Source: Eledone cirrhosa (lineage: Eukaryota). Taken from it: DNA of 64,000 nucleotides. The position numbers were made by a program, and so were the translations under genes. The stretch is taken from assembly GCA_964016885.1 (NCBI GenBank), contig OZ024743.1, positions 185,628,001 through 185,692,000 on the forward strand, in the 5' to 3' direction. Of the stretch, positions 1-19,061 are shown piece by piece; the first letter of the stretch is position 1; every line of letters begins with the position of its first letter. The notes beneath the pieces were generated by a model, which worked only from the letters and a program-made list of their open reading frames with translations, did no database searches and was not told where the DNA came from.

Positions 1-3000
1 AAACGTTAACAGTGTTGGTGAGTGAGATTCTAGCATGGCATAAACGTTAACAGTGTTGGTGAGTGAGATTCTAGCATGGCATAAACGTTAACAGTGTTGG
101 TGAGTGAGATTCTAGCATGGCATAAACGTTAAAAGTGTTGTTGACTGAGATTCTAGCATGGCATAAACGTTAACAGTGTTGTTGAGTGAGATTCTAGCAT
201 GGCATAAACGTTAACAGTGTTGTTGAGTGAGATTCTAGCATGGCATAAACGTTAACAGTGTTGTTGAGTGAGATTCTAGTATGGCATAAACGTTAACAGT
301 GTTGGTTAGTGAGATTCTAGCATGGCATAAACGTTAACAGTGTTGGTGAGTGAGATTCTAGCATGGCATAAACGTTAACAGTGTTGGTGAGTGAGATTCT
401 AGTATGGCATAAACGTTAACAGTGTTGGTAAGTGAGATTCTAGCATGGCATAAACGTTAACAGTGTTGGTGAGTGAGATTCTAGCATGGCATAAACGTTA
501 ACAGTGTTGGTGATTGAGATTCTAGCATGGCATAAACGTTAACAGTGTTGGTGAGTGAGATTCTAGTATGGCATAAACGTTAACAGTGTTTGTGAGTGAG
601 ATTCTAGTATGGCATAAACGTTAACAGTGTTGGTGAGTGAGATTCTAGCATGGCATAAACGTTAACAGTGTTGGTGAGTGAGATTCTAGTATGGCATAAA
701 CGTTAACAGTGTTGGTGAGTGAGATTCTAGCATGGCATAAACGTTAACAGTGTTGGTGAGTGAGATTCTAGCATGGCATAAACGTTAACAGTGTTGGTGA
801 GTGAGATTTTAGCATGGCATAAACGTTAACAGTGTTGGTGAGTGAGATTCTAGTATGGCATAAACGTTAACAGTGTTTGTGAGTGAGATTCTAGTATGGC
901 ATAAACGTTAACATTGTTGGTGAGTGAGATTCTAGTATGGCATAAACGTTAACAGTGTTGGTGAGTGAGATTCTAGTATGGCATAAACATTAACATTGTT
1001 GTTGAGTGAGATTCTAGTATGGCATAAACGTTAACAGTGTTGGTGAGTGCGATTCTAGTATGGCATAAACATTAACAGTGTTGTTGAGTGAGATTCTAGT
1101 ATGGCATAAACGTTAACAGTGTTGGTGAGTGAGATTCTAGTATGGCATAAACGTTAACAGTGTTGTTGAGTGAGATTCTAGTATGGCATACACATTAACA
1201 GTGTTGTTGAGTGCGATTCTAGCATGGCATACACGTTAAACGTGTTGTTGAGTGAGATTATAGCATGGCATACACATTAACAGTGTTGTTGAGTGAGATT
1301 CTAGTATAGCATAAACGTTAACAGTGTTGGTGAGTGAGATTCTAGTATGGCATAAACGTTAACAGTGTTGGTGAGTGAGATTCTAGTATGGCATACACAT
1401 TAACAGTGTTGTTGAGTGAGATTCTTACATGGCATAAACGTTAACAGTGTTGTTGACTGAGATTCTAGCATGGCATAAACGTTAACAGTGTTGTTGAGTG
1501 AGATTCTAGCATGGCATAAACGTTAACAGTGTTGTTGAGTGAGATTCTAGCATGGCATAAATGTTAACAGTGTTGTTGAGTGAGATTCTAGCATGGTATA
1601 AACGTTAACAGTGTTGGTGAGTGAGATTCTAGCATGGCATAAACGTTAACAGTGTTGTTGAGTGAGATTCTAGCATGGTATAAACGTTAACAGCGTTGTT
1701 GAGTGAGATTCTAGCATGGTATAAACGTTAACAGTGTTGGTGAGTGAGATTCTAGCATGGCATAAACGTTAACAGTGTTGTTGAGTGAGATTCTAGCATG
1801 GCATAAACGTTAACAGTGTTGTTGAGTGAGATTGTAGTATGGCATAAACGTTAACAGTGTTGGTGAGTGAGATTCTAGCATGGCATAAACGTTAACAGTG
1901 TTGGTGAGTGAGATTCTAGCATGGCATAAACGTTAACAATGTTGTTGAGTGAGATTCTAGCATGGCATAAACGTTAACAGTGTTGTTGAGTGAGATTGTA
2001 GTATGGCATAAACGTTAACAGTGTTGGTGAGTGAGATTCTAGCATGGCATAAACGTTAACAGTGTTGGTGAGTGCGATTCTAGTATGGCATACACATTAA
2101 CAGTGTTGTTGAGTGCGATTCTAGCATGGCATACACGTTAAAAGTGTTGTTGAGTGAGATTATAGCATGGCATACACATTAACAGTGTTGTTGAGTGAGA
2201 TTCTAGTATAGCATAAACGTTAACAGTGTTGGTGAGTGAGATTCTAGTATGGCATAAACGTTAACAGTGTTGGTGAGTGAGATTCTAGTATGGCATACAC
2301 ATTAACAGTGTTGTTGAGTGAGATTCTAGCATGGCATAAACGTTAACAGTGTTGTTCAGTGAGATTCTAGTATGGCATAAACGTTAACAGTGTTGGTGAG
2401 TGAGATTCTAGTATGGCACAAACGTTAACAGCGTTGGTGAGTGAGATTCTTACATGGCATAAACGTTAACAGTGTTGTTGACTGAGATTCTAGCATGGCA
2501 TAAACGTTAACAGTGTTGTTGAGTGAGATTCTAGCATGGCATAAACGTTAACAGTGTTGTTGAGTGAGATTCTAGCATGGCATAAACGTTAACAGTGTTG
2601 TTGAGTGAGATTCTAGCATGGTATAAACGTTAACAGTGTTGGTGAGTGAGATTCTAGCATGGCATAAACGTTAACAGTGTTGTTGAGTGAGATTCTAGCA
2701 TGGTATAAACGTTAACAGTGTTGTTGAGTGAGATTCTAGCATGGTATAAACGTTAACAGTGTTGGTGAGTGAGATTCTAGCATAGCATAAACGTTAACAG
2801 TGTTGTTGAGTGAGATTCTAGCATGGTATAAACGTTAACAGTGTTGGTGAGTGAGATTCTAGCATGGCATAAACGTTAACAGTGTTGTTGAGTGAGATTC
2901 TAGCATGGTATATAAGTTAACAGTGTTGGTGAGTGAGATTCTAGCATGGCATAAACGTTAACAGTGTTGTTGAGTGAGATTCTAGCATGGCATAAACGTT

Positions 3001-6000
3001 AACAGTGTTGTTGAGTGAGATTGTAGTATGGCATAAACGTTAACAGTGTTGGTGAGTGAGATTCTAGCATGGCATAAACGTTAACAGTGTTGGTGAGTGA
3101 GATTCTAGCATGGCATAAACGTTAACAGTGTTGTTGAGTGAGATTCTAGCATGGCATAACCGTTAACAGTGTTGTTGAGTGAGATTGTAGTATGGCATAA
3201 ACGTTAACAGTGTTGGTGAGTGAGATTCTAGCATGGCATAAACGTTAACAGTGTTGGTGAGTGCGATTCTAGTATGGTATAAACATTAACAGTGTTGTTG
3301 AGTGAGATTCTAGTATGGCATAAACGTTAACAGTGTTGGTGAGTGAGATTCTAGTATGGCATAAACGTTAACAGTGTTGTTGAGTGAGATTCTAGTATGG
3401 CATACACATTAACAGTGTTGTTGAGTGAGATTCTAGCATGGCATACACGTTAAAAGTGTTGTTGAGTGAGATTATAGCATGGCATACACATTAACAGTGT
3501 TGTTGAGTGAGATTCTAGTATAGCATAAACGTTAACAGTGTTGGTGAGTGAGATTGTAGTATGGCATAAACGTTAACAGTGTTGGTGAGTGAGATTCTAG
3601 CATGGCATAAACGTTAACAGTGTTGGTGAGTGAGATTCTAGCATGGCATAAACGTTAACAGTGTTGTTGAGTGAGATTCTAGCATGGCATAAACGTTAAC
3701 AGTGTTGTTGAGTGAGATTGTAGTATGGCATAAACGTTAACAGTGTTGGTGAGTGAGATTCTAGCATGGCATAAACGTTAACAGTGTTGGTGAGTGCGAT
3801 TCTAGTATGGCATAAACATTAACAGTGTTGTTGAGTGAGATTCTAGTATGGCATAAACGTTAACAGTGTTGGTGCGTGAGATTCTAGTATGGCATAAACG
3901 TTAACAGTGTTGTTGAGTGAGATTCTAGTATGGCATACACATTAACAGTGTTGTTGAGTGAGATTCTAGCATGGCATACACGTTATAAGTGTTGTTGAGT
4001 GAGATTATAGCATGGCATACACATTAACAGTGTTGTTGAGTGAGATTCTAGTATAGCATAAACGTTAACAGTGTTGGTGAGTGAGATTGTAGTATGGCAT
4101 AAACGTTAACAGTGTTGGTGAGTGAGATTCTAGTATGGCATACACATTAACAGTGTTGTTGAGTGAGATTCTAGCATGGCATAAACGTTAACAGTGTTGT
4201 TCAGTGAGATTCTAGTATGGCATAAACGTTAACAGTGTTGGTGAGTGAGATTCTAGTATGGCACAAACGTTAACAGTGTTGGTGAGTGAGATTCTAACAT
4301 GGCATAAACGTTAACAGTGTTGTTGACTGAGATTCAAGCATGGCATAAACGTTAACAGTGTTGTTGAGTGAGATTCTAGCATGGCATAAACGTTAACAGT
4401 GTTGTTGAGTGAGATTCTAGCATGGCATAAACGTTAACAGGGTTGTTGAGTGAGATTCTAGCATGGTATAAACGTTAACAGTGTTGGTGAGTGAGATTCT
4501 AGTATGGCATAAACGTTAACAGTGTTTGTGAGTGAGATTCTAGTATGGCATAAACGTTAACAGTGTTGGTGAGTGAGATTCTAGCATGGCATAAACGTTA
4601 ACAGTGTTGGTGAGTGAGATTCTAGTATGGCATAAACGTTAACAGTGTTGGTGAGTGAGATTCTAGCATGGCATAAACGTTAACAGTGTTGGTGAGTGAG
4701 ATTCTAGCATGGCATAAACGTTAACAGTGTTGGTGAGTGAGATTCTAGCATGGCATAAACGTTAACAGTGTTGTTGACTGAGATTCTAGCATGTCATAAA
4801 CGTTAACAGTGTTGTTGAGTGAGATTCTAGCATGGCATAAACGTTAACAGTGTTGTTGAGTGAGATTCTAGCATGGCATAAACGTTAACAGTTTTGTTGA
4901 GTGAGATTCTAGCATGGTATAAACGTTAACAGTGTTGGTGAGTGAGATTCTAGCATGGCATAAACGTTAACAGTGTTGTTGAGTGAGATTCTAGCATGGC
5001 ATAAACGTTAACAGTGTTGTTGAGTGAGATTCTAGCATGGTATAAACGTTAACAGTGTTGGTGAGTGAGATTCTAGCATGGCATAAACGTTAACAGTGTT
5101 GTTGAGTGAGATTCTAGCATGGTATAAACGTTAACAGTGTTGGTGAGTAAGATTCTAGCATGGCATAAACGTTAACAGTGTTGTTGAGTGAGATTCTTGC
5201 ATGGTATAAACGTTAACAGTGTTGGTGAGTGAGATTCTAGCATGGCATAAACGTTATCAGTGTTGTTGAGTGAGATTCTAGCATGGTATATAAGTTAACA
5301 GTGTTGGTGAGTGAGATTCTAGCATGGCATAAACGTTAACAGCGTTGTTGAGTGAGATTCTAGCATGGCATAAACGTTAACAGTGTTGTTGAGTGAGATT
5401 GTAGTATGGCATAAACGTTAACAGTGTTGGTGAGTGAGATTCTAGCATGGCATAAACGTTAACAGTGTTGGTGAGTGAGATTCTAGCATGGCATAAACGT
5501 TAACAGTGTTGTTGAGTGAGATTCTAGCATGGCATAAACGTTAACAGTGTTGTTGAGTGAGATTGTAGTATGGCATAAACGTTAACAGTGTTGGTGAGTG
5601 AGATTCTAGCATGGCATAAACGTTAACAGTGTTGGTGAGTGCGATTCTAGTATGGCATAAACATTAACAGTGTTGTTGAGTGAGATTCTAGTATGGCATA
5701 AACGTTAACAGTGTTGGTGAGTGAGATTCTAGTATGGCATAAACGTTAACAGTGTTGGTGAGTGAGATTCTAGCATGGCATAAACGTTAACAGTGTTGGT
5801 GAGTGCGATTCTAGTATGGCATAAACATTAACAGTGTTGTTGAGTGAGATTCTAGTATGGCATAAACGTTAACAGTGTTGGTGAGTGAGATTCTAGTATG
5901 GCATAAACGTTAACAGTGTTGTTGAGTGAGATTCTAGTATGGCATACACATTAACAGTGTTGTTGAGTGAGATTCTAGCATGGCATACACGTTAAAAGTG

Positions 6001-7106
6001 TTGTTGAGTGAGATTATAGCATGGCATACACATTAACAGTGTTGTTGAGTGAGATTCTAGTATAGCATAAACGTTAACAGTGTTGGTGAGTGAGATTCTA
6101 GTATGGCATAAAAGTTAACAGTGTTGGTGAGTGAGATTCTAGTATGGCATACACATTAACAGTGTTGTTGAGTGAGATTCTAGCATGGCATAAACGTTAA
6201 CAGTGTTGTTCAGTGAGATTCTAGTATGGCATAAACGTTAACAGTGTTGGTGAGTGAGATTCTAGTATGGCACAAACGTTAACAGTGTTGGTGAGTGAGA
6301 TTCTAACATGGCATAAACGTTAACAGTGTTGTTGACTGAGATTCTAGCATGGCATAAACGTTAACAGTGTTGTTGAGTGAGATTCTAGCATGGCATAAAC
6401 GTTAACAGTGTTGTTGAGTGAGATTCTAGCATGGTATAAACGTTAATAGTGTTGGTGAGTGAGATTCTAGCATGGCATAAACGTTAACAGTGTTGTTGAG
6501 TGAGATTCTAGCATGGTATAAACGTTAACAGTGTTGGTGAGTGAGATTCTAGCATGGCATAAACGTTAACAGTGTTGTTGAGTGAGATTCTAGCATGGCA
6601 TAAACGTTAACAGTGTTGTTGAGTGAGATTGTAGTATGGCATAAACGTTAACAGTGTTGTTGAGTGAGATTCTAGCATGGTATAAACGTTAATAGTGTTG
6701 GTGAGTGAGATTCTAGCATGGCATAAACGTTAACAGTGTTGTTGAGTGAGATTCTAGCATGGTATAAACGTTAACAGTGTTGGTGAGTGAGATTCTAGCA
6801 TGGCATAAACGTTAACAGTGTTGTTGAGTGAGATTCTAGCATGGCATAAACGTTAACAGTGTTGTTGAGTTAGATTGTAGTATGGCATAAACGTTAACAG
6901 TGTTGTTGAGTGAGATTCTAGCATGGCATAAACGTTAACAGTGTTGTTGAGTGAGATTGTAGTATGGCATAAACGTTAACAGTGTTGGTGAGTGAGATTC
7001 TAGCATGGCATAAACGTTAACAGTGTTGGTGAGTGAGATTCTAGTATGGCATAAACGTTAACAGTGTTGGTGAGTGAGATTCTAGTATGGCATAAACGTT
7101 AACAGT
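1..7106. repeat. 41-bp tandem satellite array (~173 units, open at window start)
   Basis: Unit AAACGTTAACAGTGTTG(G/T)TGAGTGAGATTCTAG(C/T)ATGGCAT repeated head-to-tail; the last partial unit starts at 7094 = 1+173x41. Confidence 0.98.
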
Positions 7107-11199: not shown

Positions 11200-13490
11200 T
11201 GCTGAAATGTTAGAACCCTTTTGAAGCACAATTCATCAAACTGACTTCAATGGAACATGAGAAAACTTCAGAAATCAAGTACGCAGCAGGAACAGAAGAA
11301 TTGGGATTCAGAGTGAAAAAAAACCATAAAGACTGATGTGATGATAATGAACAAGCTATCAGCCAGCTGTTGAAAAGAAAACATGGTCTTCATGAAAAGG
11401 TTCAGTGAGAGTGCCCAGTAAACTGACCTATTATTAAGAAAACATATAAAGAATGTAAAGCTATCTTACAGCGTGAACTGAGGAAGCTTAAGAATGATTG
11501 GTGGTCGAAGATCTCTGTGGAACTGTTAAAGGTTGGTAATGAGAACATAACTCAAATAGTACTCTATCTCATCACAAAGTGTTGGCCAGACACTCCTGTA
11601 CAACAGGATTGGATCGATGGTAGCTTGGTGGCCTTGTTCAAGGGTAAAGGAGAAAAAGGAATTTGTAATCCCTATCATGGCATTACTCTGTTGGAAGTTG
11701 TGGGCAAAGTTCTTGCTCGATTATTGTTGAATAGGTTGATGGAAGACATTTGTCCTACAGTAATCTCTGAATCACAAAGTAGATTTAGATCTGGCAGAGG
11801 GATGATTGATATGAACTTCTCTGCAAGGCAGATACAGGAGAAATGTATTGAGCAGCTGGTTCCTCTGTATCAGGTTTTTGTTAATCCGACAAATGCCTTT
11901 GTTACAGTGACCAGAGGTGTGCTATGGAAAATACTAAGGAAAGTAAGGTGCCCACCAAAGTTTGTTGATATGTTTTTCCAGCTGCATAGAGATATGAAGG
12001 CTTGGGTAGTCTTTAATGGAGAATTGTCCAATGAAATCCCAGTTGACAATGGTGTGAAGCAAGGAGATATCACAGCTCCCACACTATTTTCAATATTCTT
12101 GATTGTGCTGCGGACTCTTGCATTCCAGGTCTGTGAGAATGGTGCTCTATTGCGAATGGTGCTCTATTGCGAATGGTGTTCTACAGGAAGAATCTTTGAC
12201 CTAAGAAGATTCAATTTCAAGTCCAATGTGTTCTAAACACTAATTAGAGAACTCCTGTATGCAGACGGCGTTGACTTTCTGGCTCACTCTCAAGATGACA
12301 AGCAGCACATCATGGATTGTTTTGCAGTTTCTTGTAATGCCTTTAGTATGAAAATTAATTTGAAAAAGACTAAAGTAATGTTCACCCCAGCACCAGGAGA
12401 AGCATACATTGAGCCAAATATAATGGTACATGGAACTAGGTTGGGTGTATTTGACATTTTTGTTTACTTGGGCAGTGCATTGTTGAGGGATGGTTCACTG
12501 GATGTGGAATACACCTGCACATTGAGAAGAGCTCTGTAACCTTCGGAAAACTCGAAAGAAAGTGTGGGCGGATCATGGCATCAATAACATAGACCAAGAT
12601 TAGTGTGTTCAAAGCCTGTATACAGTCTGCTCTGTTGTACGCCTCAGAGATGTGAACAGTACATCGTAGACACCTCAGTCTGCTTGAACACTTTAATCAA
12701 AAGAGGCAACAAAAATACCTGACACACAAATCCTTATAGATGCTTATTGCACAAGCATTGAACCTGACATCATATCCTCTCAAATGCGTTGGTCAGGCCA
12801 CATTGTTCGTATGAATGAGGATAGACTCCCAATTGAATGATGATAGACAGTCAATTGCACGCTGAGAAACGCCCTCAGCACAAACCAAGAAAAAATATAA
12901 AGACTGCAAAAAAAAAAACAACCTTATGGATCTACAGACTGAACTTCAGAACTAGGATGTGCTAGCTTTAAAGAGGGTTGAATGGAAAAGACATGTGAAG
13001 GAAGGCTGCAGACTGTCTGAAGAGAGATGTCTCGACCATGAAAGTCTTAAACATCAGCCTTGAATAGGCCACAGTAGGAACCTCAATAAGAACAAAGGAA
13101 GCTGGAGATGTAAAGTGTATGGTTGTCTAATGTTCTCTAAATCTGGGTACATCACTCATCTAAAATCACATGAAGGACTAACTGTATGCAGCATTATCCC
13201 TCCAATACTAGGCGAGACAACATGTGTGGTATGCAGAAAAATCTGCAAATTAACTTTTGGTTTTAAAAAGCAAATGAGAGTACATAAGGATGACATTCAC
13301 AAACTGACCTAATCAATCCAATAGAAGGCACATTTTTTTGTCCGTCATATTTGTTCTAGACCATGCAAATCTGCAGCTGGACTTAAAAGCTACCTACAAT
13401 GTCATAGCTGGACATTTGGGGGTGGTGATGATGTTGGGGGTATACAAAGAGATGACAATCATCTGTAAAGATGGTGCAATCACCATGTAT
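11200..13490 (+). pseudogene. RTE (BovB-like) LINE, degenerate RT plus C-terminus
   Basis: ORF 11517-12236 has RT motifs (LFKGKG...YHGITLL, SQSRFRSGRG, GVKQGDITAPTLF); LLYADG at ~12252; INLKKTKVM, FVYLGS; several stops and frameshifts. Confidence 0.9.
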
Positions 13491-15397: not shown

Positions 15398-15602
15398 TCA
15401 TCATTTTCATCATTTCATTTTACGTCCGCTTTTTCCCTGCTTGCAAGGGTGGGACGGGAACTGATTCTGGCTTTATTTCTACAGCTGGATGCCCTTCCTA
15501 ACACCAACCTCATTTGCAGTGCGTGCTGGGTGCTTTTTTGCCGTGGCACCTACACGTCCACTTTGCAGTGGAATGATATGGACCTCAGTCCCTATCATCT
15601 CA
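15398..15602 (-). mobile_element. SINE family A, 3' half
   Basis: Reverse complement of the 3' half of 30834-31178 and 61134-61460. Confidence 0.8.
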
Positions 15603-15696
15603 TATATATATATATATATATATATAAACAAGGTTTAGCAAATAATGAAAAAGTTTCAAAATAAATTTTTAAAAATTGACCTTACCTACTATAGTT

Positions 15697-15781
15697 ACCT
15701 TTACCGATCGGTTTCGAATCCCAAAAATAAAACGGAGACCATACGGCCTTCGTTTGCAAAGAAAGATTCTCGTCAGAAGGT
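15697..15781 (-). ncRNA. Type I hammerhead ribozyme (inverted copy)
   Basis: Reverse complement of 15919-16003 with an intact core. Confidence 0.8.
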
Positions 15782-15918
15782 TCTTTTCATTCAAAGAATA
15801 TAAAATTCATGAATTTAAATCACAGACTAGCGCTATCAAAACTGTTCCCGGGATGAGAATGGATGATGTAGAAACAGGTTTATCAAGGGCCGAATTTTAT
15901 ATTCTTTGAATGAAAAGA

Positions 15919-16003
15919 ACCTTCTGACGAGAATCTTTCTTTGCAAACGAAGGCCGTATGGTCTCCGTTTTATTTTTGGGATTCGAAACCGATCGGTAAA
16001 GGT
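15919..16003 (+). ncRNA. Type I hammerhead ribozyme, extended stem II
   Basis: ACCTT-CTGACGA-GAATCTT...GGGATTC-GAAA-CCGATCGG-TA-AAGGT: stem I ACCTT/AAGGT, palindromic stem III, GUA cleavage triplet. Confidence 0.85.
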
Positions 16004-16402
16004 AACTATAGTAGGTAAGGTCAATTTTTTAAAATTTATTTTGAAACTTTTTCATTATTTGCTAAACCTTGTTTATATTTGTTCTGGCTCGTTAATTTAT
16101 TAACCCGCCATTGAACCACACTGGCATTTGGTTGGACAATACATGCGTACCTTAGCACCTTGTGTGTGAAGGAACACATATCCTATTACTACTACCTCCT
16201 CTAATGTTGAGAACAAATTTGGTCGTTCTGACTGCTGCTAGCGATAGCTGTGGCTGGTTTGACCTACCTCCTTCTGCCTCTATCTTTGCTTCGGCCCTTG
16301 ATAAACCTGTTTCTACATCATCCACTCTCATCCCGGGAACAGTTTTGATAGCGCTAGTCTGTGATTTAAATTCATGAATTTTATATTCTTTGAATGAAAA
16401 GA

Positions 16403-16487
16403 ACCTTCTGACAAGAATCTTTCTTTGCAAACGAAGGCCGTATGGTCTCCGTTTTATTTTTGGGATTCGAAACCGATCGGTAAAGGT
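16403..16487 (+). ncRNA. Hammerhead ribozyme copy with G8A core mutation (probably inactive)
   Basis: Same as 15919-16003 but the core reads CTGACAA. Confidence 0.7.
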
Positions 16488-16667
16488 AACTATAGTAGGT
16501 AAGGTCAATTTTTTAAAATTTATTTTGAAACTTTTTCATTATTTGCTAAACCTTGTTTATATTTGTTCTGGCTCGTTAATTTATTAACCCGCCATTGAAC
16601 CACACTGGCATTTGGTTGGACAATACATGCGTACCTTAGCACCTTGTGTGTGAAGGAACACATATCC

Positions 16668-16710
<43 letters not shown>

Positions 16711-16816
16711 AACAGGGACAAAATATATATATATATTTGAACAGGGACAAAACAGAGAGGCAGTACAACAAATGTTTATTAATTTCACGCTCTGGAGAGT
16801 GGGGTGTTGGTGGGGG

Positions 16817-16848
16817 ACGACGTTTCGGGCATAAGCCCTTCCTCAGGT
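16817..16848 (-). ncRNA. Minimal Penelope-type hammerhead ribozyme
   Basis: CTGAGGA-A-GGGC-TTAT-GCCC-GAAA-CG-TC; very short stems I and III. Confidence 0.7.
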
Positions 16849-18349
16849 GGGAAGTGTGTGGGAACAGAGTTCAGAGGGTGTGTAGGGGAGTGGCGGAGAG
16901 ACATATAGTGAAAGGAAACGGTGCGAATGAAAAAATAAAAAAATAAAGATAAAAATAAAAATAAAGCATGATCAAAATACAAGGAATGAGATAAATTAAA
17001 AAATAAAGGCATGATCAAAATAAACTGAAATTAAAAGGGGGTTAAACAGGTGGTGGAAGGGTGTGGGGTGTGTAGGGGTGGTGGCGGGTGGAGTGGGGAG
17101 AGGGAGACGGGGTGTCCGAGCGGGGAGGGCTGAAGGTGGTGTGTATGTGTAGGTGTGTGTGTGTGTATGTGAAAGTAAGGGTTGGGGGAAGAACGGGGTT
17201 GCATGTTCAGGAAGAGGTGTGTGTGTGGGGGGTTTGTGGGTCGGAGTGTCTGTGCGTGTGTGGATAGAGGGGTGGGGGGAGAGGAATCAGGAGGCTGAGG
17301 GTGTAGATATGTGGTGGAAAGCACGTGTGTGTGGGGTTTAAGCGTGTTGTGGGTGTAGGTGGCGTGTGGAGAAAAACATTTTTTGGGGTGTGTGTGTGGG
17401 TGAGTTATATAGGTGATTACGTAAGAGGATGGTTGAAAAGTTGGTAAATTCCGAAGATGTTTAGTGGATTGGTGGTTGGTCAATTTCTGCGTGTGGGTAT
17501 TCCATGAAGCGATGGTCGGAAAAGGAGAGATGTGGGGTGCGCGCGCAACAGGAAGTGGTCAGCAGTGGGAGTGCTGTGGTCTGTTTGTGCTGGGAGGTGG
17601 TCAGAGGGCATAGCAGCAGTCGGTGGAATGGTAAAGGAACGAGGATGGGTAGGTGTGAAAGTTGGAGTGAGGAGGGTGTGTGTGTGTGCATTAGTAGGGT
17701 GTTAGTGGGATGAGTGAGTGTGGAGCGAGGGTGTGGGTGGAGCGGGGAGAGAAGGGTGTGTGTGGTTCTATGGAGGGAGTGTGGTGTACTGGTGTGTGTG
17801 TAGTTTGATGAAGAGGTGTTAGTGGGTGTTAGTGTACGGGAGATGGGGAGGGGTTGAATGCAGGTGTGAGTGGGGGTTAGTGGTGGTAGGGTGTGTAGAG
17901 TTGGTGGTGTACGAGGGTGTGTGGGTACGTGTGCGTGGGGTTGGGGGGTGTTAGTGATGTTAGTTGCGTGTGGGGTGGGTGGTGTAAGTGGGTGCGTGTG
18001 TTCGTGTGTTTGGGGTCAGGGGGTGTTAGTGAGGTTAGTTGCGGGGTGGTGGGATGGAGCTGTGGGGGTGAGAGGTGTGGGGGTGAGGGTTAGTGGTGGT
18101 AGTAGGGTGTGTGTTTAGTGTGAGCGCGTGTATATATGTGCCGGTGGGTGTGTGCGTGTGATAAGGAGGGGGGAGGAGGAGAAAAGGGGAGGGAAGGGAT
18201 GTTAGTATGTTAGTTGTGGAAGGGTGGTCAGATGAGGGGTGGAGTGGAGGTGTTAGTATTGTTAGTTGTGGGGTGGGCGGTGAAAAGGAGGGGTGTGTTA
18301 GTGGGGGATAAGTGTGGGGGGAGGGGGGCGGTCGAAGGCTAAAGGAATA

Positions 18350-19061
18350 AGGGTGGGGAGTTCAGGCCGGGGGGGGGTCTGTAAGATGAAGATAGTTCGT
18401 TGTTCGACCGTAAGGCGATTGGCGGAGGTTCCGTGGCACTGGAGTAGGCCACAGACTGTGAGATGGCGTGCGGAATGTCCAGGGCCACCAAAGTGGCGGG
18501 CGATGGGGGAACTGCCCCCGAGACGAATATCCCGGAGGTGCTCCGTGACTCGGTCCGCCAGGCGACGTCCCGTCTGTCCGACATAAGTCCGACATAAGTC
18601 CGACAGAAGTCCGTAGACTAGGTTGGAGGAGGTGCAGCAGAAGGCATGCCGGACCGAGAGAGAGTGGCCGTTGGGACCCTGGAAGGTGGTGGTGTTGGTG
18701 ATGTGGGGACAGGTGTTGCAGCGGGGCCTAGAACAGGGAAAGGAACCGGGGGGGGGGAACAGAGCGTGGGTTGGGGGTAGGGAGCTGTGGACGAGGAGGG
18801 TGCGGAGATTGCGTGCGCGTTTGAAGGAGGGGTGTGGTGGGGTTGGGAAGATGTGGGAGGTAGAGGGGTCGGACTGAAGGCGTCGGAAGAGGCGGCGGAT
18901 GGTGCGGTGGAGGGGTAAGGTGGAGGGGTGGTAGGTGATGGGGGAGGGGAGACGGTGGGTGGGTGTGCGGTGGCGTGGGGTGAGGGTGGTGGAGCGGGGG
19001 ACAGCACGGGCGCGGGTGAGAGCGGTGTGGACGAGAGAGGGGGGTAACCTCTGCGGATGAA

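Follow-up and report, generated by a model that had tools for sequence, protein, structure and literature searches.

Organization of the locus

We analyzed a 64,000-nt window of the Eledone cirrhosa genome and, within it, a locus formed by three type I hammerhead ribozymes, two in tandem 484 nt apart and one inverted, with (TA)n outside. The tandem hammerheads lie on the plus strand at 15919..16003 and 16403..16487, and an intact antisense hammerhead occupies 15697..15781 on the minus strand, all three where the initial annotation had placed them; their CUGANGA cores begin at 15924 (+), 16408 (+) and 15776 (-). In the first plus-strand hammerhead, which is intact, stem I (ACCUU/AAGGU, 5 bp; 15919-15923/15999-16003) encloses the core CUGACGA (15924-15930), a stem II domain (15931-15984) and GAAA (15985-15988), and stem I of the second hammerhead starts at 16403. 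The stem II domain, first estimated at ~54 nt, measures 54 nt and consists of an inner loop and an outer hairpin. Stem III is palindromic, with two C-G pairs and a tetraloop. PMC7229834 likens this form to invertebrate hammerheads; dimeric cleavage, which had been read from this palindrome, is therefore possible but not required. Cleavage is predicted after GUA at 15998 and 16482, 484 nt apart, delimiting a cut-to-cut monomer (15999..16482), and after 15702 on the minus strand. A conserved hairpin with one compensatory pair between subfamilies is located immediately 5' of the second hammerhead (16372..16393). A search of the window with the Rfam models returned no hammerhead at E<=1 and only microsatellite noise, a miss presumably caused by the long stem II.

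The ribozymes are carried by two arms of a repeat unit with low GC content (38%). Unit position 1 corresponds to window position 15892, and the predicted cut follows unit position 107. The direct arm (15892..16672, plus strand, 781 nt) contains one full 484-nt unit and the first 297 nt of a second one, and its 3' end lies in (TA)n at a site termed L (long); the inverted arm (15622..15894, minus strand, 273 nt) covers unit positions 399-484 and then 1-187 and ends in (TA)n at a site termed S (short). Within the monomer, S corresponds to 16078 (80 nt past the cut) and L to 16188 (190 nt past the cut). The head-to-head junction is a 3-nt GAA overlap of the arms (15892..15894), the microhomology noted earlier. 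The segment described initially as a 5' inverted one is indeed inverted, but it represents the second of two arms, with its 3' end fixed in place, as is usual for Penelope-type footprints. Both ends sit in microsatellites, as reported: (AT)12 at 15602-15626, the left target, and (TA)18 at 16671-16707, the right target. The copies differ at few positions, again in line with the initial annotation: the direct repeat (15892-16188 vs 16376-16672) at 1 of 297 bases, which is G8A at 16413, and the inverted arm (15622-15894 vs 16290-16562) at 3 of 273. A transcript across both arms (15622-16562) would make a near-perfect hairpin of 273 bp, a possible small-RNA trigger.

Elsewhere in the window are a satellite array (1-7106; 41-bp period, 173 copies, 94% match) and a broken LINE-type reverse transcriptase (RT) frame (11427-12539; RVT_1, E 5e-12). 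The right (TA)n run is common to the retrozyme and the 3' end of a separate, 5'-truncated Penelope element on the minus strand (16694-19050), which we take to be Neptune-like from its cysteine linker. The GIY-YIG-type frame of this element spans 18298-19020, its minimal hammerhead lies near 16815-16850, and its 3' tip carries a 29-nt duplication.

Copy number, subfamilies and coding capacity

A genome-wide count, as proposed with the initial annotation, was made with ribozyme patterns on the 3.0-Gb source genome. The exact ribozyme pattern has 1,032 matches while the reversed pattern has none, therefore the hammerhead is not a chance occurrence; a looser, family-wide pattern gave 3,136 matches against 0 for its reversed control. 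We distinguished four subfamilies including that of the window, the other three being traced from older relatives beside two copies. The unit length is kept at 482-487 nt among subfamilies. Compared with the window unit, full monomers from two of the other subfamilies are 67-78% alike; the evidence for the third comes from partial copies and the spacing of its repeats. Thus, the family had been called young, which holds for the window subfamily, but the lineage is old. Arrays reach 10 units. Some loci are segmental duplicates of one another (L014/L016/L024/L025, L095/L096, and L004/L010). The family is also present as short contigs in four runs of one study, which may be the source sample and do not count as independent support; no RNA run was listed as containing the family.

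The unit has no credible ORF, as had been proposed. The longest stop-free frame (127 aa, 59 aa from Met) is on the minus strand and has no Pfam match, nor does a 73-aa frame on the plus strand; stop-free frame lengths vary between subfamilies, and no ORF is conserved.

Ribozyme fold and the G8A substitution

Across the four subfamilies, 8 of 27 stem pairs are changed on both sides; stem I accounts for two of these and stem II for three. Overall, 96% of the alignment cells pair, compared with 20-60% when the partners are slid; the alignment consists of 15 hand-picked copies that represent four lineages rather than 15 independent events. In 30 of 500 shuffles the number of doubly changed pairs was reached, and one of five covariation measures did not exceed the shuffles. 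Of 156 copies, 151 retain an unbroken hammerhead core. Self-cleavage of the RNA is a prediction. Folded by itself, the ribozyme reaches its lowest energy in a structure whose core is mispaired with stem III. The circular monomer folds at -100.7 kcal/mol, no better than 60 shuffles (-95.1 +/- 5.4; z = -1.0). Published retrozyme circles are called highly self-paired, a statement that stands without a shuffle control in the available passages of PMC7229834.

The G8A substitution that the initial annotation had seen in the second core is private to the window locus (1 of 156 cores, from loci picked by a pattern that permits either base at G8). Since G8 pairs with C3, and a G8C mutant is dead in the available text of PMC11167929, G8A should disable the second core, and the window locus could not release a monomer alone. 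Therefore, the window copy is likely a product of the cycle rather than a source of circles. This natural G8A copy can be used to separate single from double hammerhead cleavage within one transcript.

Two fixed ends and their pairing

To describe the insertion footprint we used all 52 loci behind the first 100 matches listed of the 1,032 exact matches, and mapped arms at >=88% identity, leaving out rows below this threshold. Of 79 arms, 43 end at S (unit 184-192), 31 at L (288-304), and five elsewhere; the two sites are 110 nt apart. TA repeats adjoin 75 of the 79 arms, and the 5' ends are scattered. The 25 head-to-head pairs comprise 20 L+S combinations, one S+S, no L+L, and four with one unclassifiable end. 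Thus, among the 21 two-armed insertions whose ends could be classified, 20 combine both kinds of end (p = 6e-6 against independent choice; about 1e-5, computed by hand, once one duplicated locus is dropped), and the window copy, with its inverted arm ending at S and its direct arm at L, obeys the same rule. Another 20 loci from the first search gave L+S in 10 of 11 pairs.

This pattern bears on the idea of a satellite-like repeat that spread at the DNA level, by unequal crossing-over or gene conversion, and in which the ribozyme is a leftover. Local amplification can yield identical array units, and segmental duplicates occur among the loci. However, the copies are dispersed and TA-targeted, their 3' ends are fixed while their 5' ends vary, and they follow an inversion rule that a retrotransposon also follows, which largely refutes such a mechanism for dispersal; it may still add units within arrays, but as an account of the family it is extremely improbable.

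The two arms of an insertion are related. In 28 of 30 comparisons, an arm resembled its partner more than it did half of the other copies; six pairs had no overlap. In L085, an array of ten consecutive near-identical units, nine full units show no substitution and the opposite arm differs at 1 of 482 positions, against a between-locus median of 6.9%. Eight units in L065 show one difference. In shorter arrays (L059, L074, L014, L054, and L006) the units differ at 2-8 places.

Common variants in head-to-head arms, together with a few near-palindromic junctions (L073, L085, and L088), are what would be expected if the inverted arm arose by fold-back self-priming, as proposed for Penelope in the available text of PMC3846280, rather than from two separately primed cDNAs. 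Fold-back predicts matching break points (<=30 nt), which were observed in 3 of 25 pairs, with about three expected by chance, and this spread of the junctions weakens it. Moreover, fold-back itself gives no reason for the second arm to end at the other of the two fixed sites, and we regard this origin of the inverted arm as very unlikely.

A more serious question is the template. An RNA circle released by the ribozyme best explains the long uniform arrays, but the same twin start could operate on RNA that was transcribed from a tandem source array and stayed linear and uncut, with the ribozyme cutting rarely or serving in another step and with no circle needed. Several observations agree with an uncut template. 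The whole hammerhead is traversed by 67 of the 79 arms, a proportion inflated by the choice of each locus for holding one. The 2-8 differences among units of the five shorter arrays are not explained by one circle itself. The 5' ends have no sharp pile-up at the predicted cut site. Of 111 arms, 11 begin between unit positions 100 and 120 (p = 0.009, for an interval picked after looking), and TA-flanked starts occur in at least 33 loci at unit 99-129 (from 100 of 153 matches listed) compared with 15 loci at 69-99 (from all 37 matches), but most of these starts fall on TA/TATA letters that match the target and may therefore say little about cutting in either direction. Uncut RNA is also the main in vitro substrate in the available text of PMC11167929. 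On the other side, the ten units and matching opposite arm of L085 and the eight units of L065 would need a long source array of perfect uniformity, and the ribozyme fold has been kept through ~30% divergence. Uncut tandem transcripts are thus a serious rival, although we consider them rather unlikely.

Penelope-like families as candidate partners

Three Penelope-like element (PLE) families were compared with the retrozyme. PLE-B was traced from a fragment beside an older retrozyme copy and is represented by loci L249-L268. It has a 3127-nt unit with an intact 860-aa ORF encoding RT and GIY-YIG domains (L254:1766-4345) and many near-identical copies; its tandem and opposite copies are mostly 98-99.9% alike to the reference unit, and it is a very young Penelope-like family. 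Among the 20 PLE-B regions fetched, of which 13 were chosen for neighbouring hits, all 13 two-armed insertions pair an end at unit 535 with a second one at 575-577, 40 nt away, and all lie in (TA)n. PLE-B also carries a possible variant minimal hammerhead, with a CCGAAGA core, ahead of the ORF start. In PLE-C the two ends are about 40 nt apart.

The Neptune-like family is abundant (29,663 first-look candidates) and has long ORFs. As a partner it was demoted: it has one dominant 3' end, and both strands were found in 0 of 54 loci, which were 3.5-7 kb long, a length that can cut arms off. Four of its loci (L203, L207, L218, and L228) contain internally deleted tandem derivatives with hammerhead spacings of 571, 645, 1248 and 1074 nt, respectively, which resemble retrozymes in the course of arising from a coding element.

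Nucleotide homology to the retrozyme was absent from all three families (best E 0.017 for PLE-B and 0.35 for the Neptune-like family; nothing under E 0.05 for PLE-C); because of this, the partner is assigned by its footprint. Among 157 loci, sequence of the three families lies within 25 nt of a retrozyme arm at five places, two of which seem to be independent insertions into a single TA run, whereas the other three seem to be mixed insertions. In one mixed insertion, an older retrozyme arm ending at S meets, head-to-head, a PLE-B-like arm with the L motif at its end; the PLE end of this chimera has been changed by a deletion and subsequently by an insertion. In L099 (2939-3018) a retrozyme long (L) arm is joined head-to-head to an 80-nt Neptune-like 3' end, and in L089 (3285-3990) a retrozyme arm joins the long end of a two-armed PLE-C insertion via a 4-nt shared stretch, through either a template switch or a later deletion. 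By footprint, the best partner is likely PLE-B or a close relative.

The Penelope-like layout of the insertions also raises a case that the initial annotation had named as refuting it, namely that the unit is no more than the pseudo-LTR (pLTR) of a coding Penelope-like element and that the locus shows a truncated version of its partial tandem. Inspection covered a small share of the roughly 3,000 copies, and a rare coding parent may have escaped it. However, at none of the five places among the 157 loci does an ORF run into the unit as its own pLTR, and 40 of the 79 arms exceed one unit and lead into another unit rather than an ORF. An ORF with RT and GIY-YIG domains between retrozyme repeats is absent in the sampled loci, and coding PLE remnants, present in 4 of 52 loci, nowhere abut a retrozyme arm. 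Since the subfamilies also hold their unit length, a pLTR origin is highly unlikely, and the description as a non-autonomous hammerhead retroelement family is supported.

A model for retrozyme insertion

We propose that the locus is a recent copy of a protein-free, 484-nt animal non-LTR retrozyme, inserted as two arms in (TA)n and likely copied by a Penelope-like RT/endonuclease from one predicted self-cleaving, likely circularising RNA; we assign this reading a probability of about 60%. In this model, a tandem source copy would be transcribed and cut to monomers, which a host ligase would ligate. A Penelope-like protein, probably a dimer, would then nick both strands of a (TA)n run. One cDNA would begin at the internal site S and the other at L on the same RNA template, and the length to which each extends would vary, reaching beyond the ribozyme and in some cases making ten rounds of the template. 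Finally, the far ends of the two cDNAs would join via a few shared bases, which would be GAA at the window locus.

Several points speak against the model. The partner is identified by footprint only, with the 110-nt retrozyme tail being unlike the 40-nt tail of PLE-B, and the mixed insertion in L099 carries a Neptune-like arm, not PLE-B. The circular monomer folds no better than shuffles and the lone ribozyme mispairs its core, and a single circle leaves the five variable arrays unexplained. According to the available text of the sources, 1 of 9 tested Xenopus retrozyme dimers cleaved (bioRxiv 10.64898/2026.07.22.740005), and cleavage is unneeded for insertion in vitro (PMC11167929).

It can be further speculated, quite tentatively and with the odds against it, that one dimer starts both Penelope-type arms at two obligatory different sites of a single RNA circle, and that the retrozyme lineage has parasitised this machinery by RNA structure alone, without homology to the helper, through ~30% divergence. 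If so, the genome holds a matched intact enzyme (PLE-B) and substrate for reconstituting both the origin of Penelope inverted repeats and the mobilisation of retrozymes.

Comparison with known systems

The literature is cited here and above from the available parts of each paper. Animal non-LTR retrozymes were defined by Cervera and de la Pena 2020 (PMC7229834), who described cleavage and circles and proposed PLEs as helpers. Like them, the window family has a non-coding, low-GC tandem unit of a few hundred bases that carries a single type I hammerhead, occurs in thousands of copies, and shares its genome with Penelope-like elements. Its unit falls within the ~150-1000 nt that characterize retrozymes with two or more consecutive complete hammerheads, and the window itself has two in tandem, one with G8A. 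At 484 nt the unit is a little above the 170-400 nt of invertebrate retrozyme circles (PMC7229834), and the length that the initial annotation had considered unusual lies inside the range of 51-972 bp published by Li, Clavereau and Pollet 2026 (bioRxiv 10.64898/2026.07.22.740005). The same preprint describes homology to pLTRs in Xenopus, with PLE matches in 21 of 57 retrozyme families, whereas the window family has no pLTR homology to the three PLE families compared, such as would mark a derivative of a named family. The 54-nt stem II domain missed by Rfam is another difference from known retrozymes, and neither PMC7229834 nor the preprint, in the available text, mentions retrozymes with (TA)n targeting, inverted arms or two fixed ends. 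A literature search that covered few subscription papers found no report of this retrozyme family and no counted pairing rule for retrozymes. By its sequence, the window repeat appears to be a previously undescribed animal non-LTR retrozyme, and similar families may be listed in the supplements of the 2026 preprint.

The insertions resemble those of endonuclease-containing (EN+) Penelope elements in the available passages of Craig 2021 (PMC8557442) and Arkhipova 2013 (PMC3846280). Both describe inverted copies with a one-sided tail, of 30-40 bp and often at one end only in the former. The retrozyme has the same partial tandem, adjoining inverted 5'-truncated copy, tail at one end, microsatellite target, and hammerhead in the terminal repeat, but it differs in having no ORF, a tail of ~110 nt instead of 30-40, and a repeat unit that makes up the whole element. 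The formation of tandem and inverted Penelope insertions is named as an open question in PMC8557442.

The closest biochemical parallel is PAc, a Poseidon element of Anolis (Frangieh 2024, PMC11167929), for which reverse transcription is described as starting at two internal sites, both target strands are nicked and extended, and the protein is predicted to form a dimer. In both systems two internal starts located 3' of the hammerhead cut set the genomic ends, and the targets are AT-rich. In contrast to the PAc start site, which is reported as non-homologous to the target, S and L both end in TA-like letters that match it, and the pairing of one end of each kind within an insertion is not reported for PAc in the available text. 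So far, arguments about the mobiliser of animal retrozymes have drawn on co-occurrence and on similarity to pLTRs. The strict S+L rule common to a non-coding ribozyme repeat and a young intact PLE provides a direct, testable link to the mobiliser.
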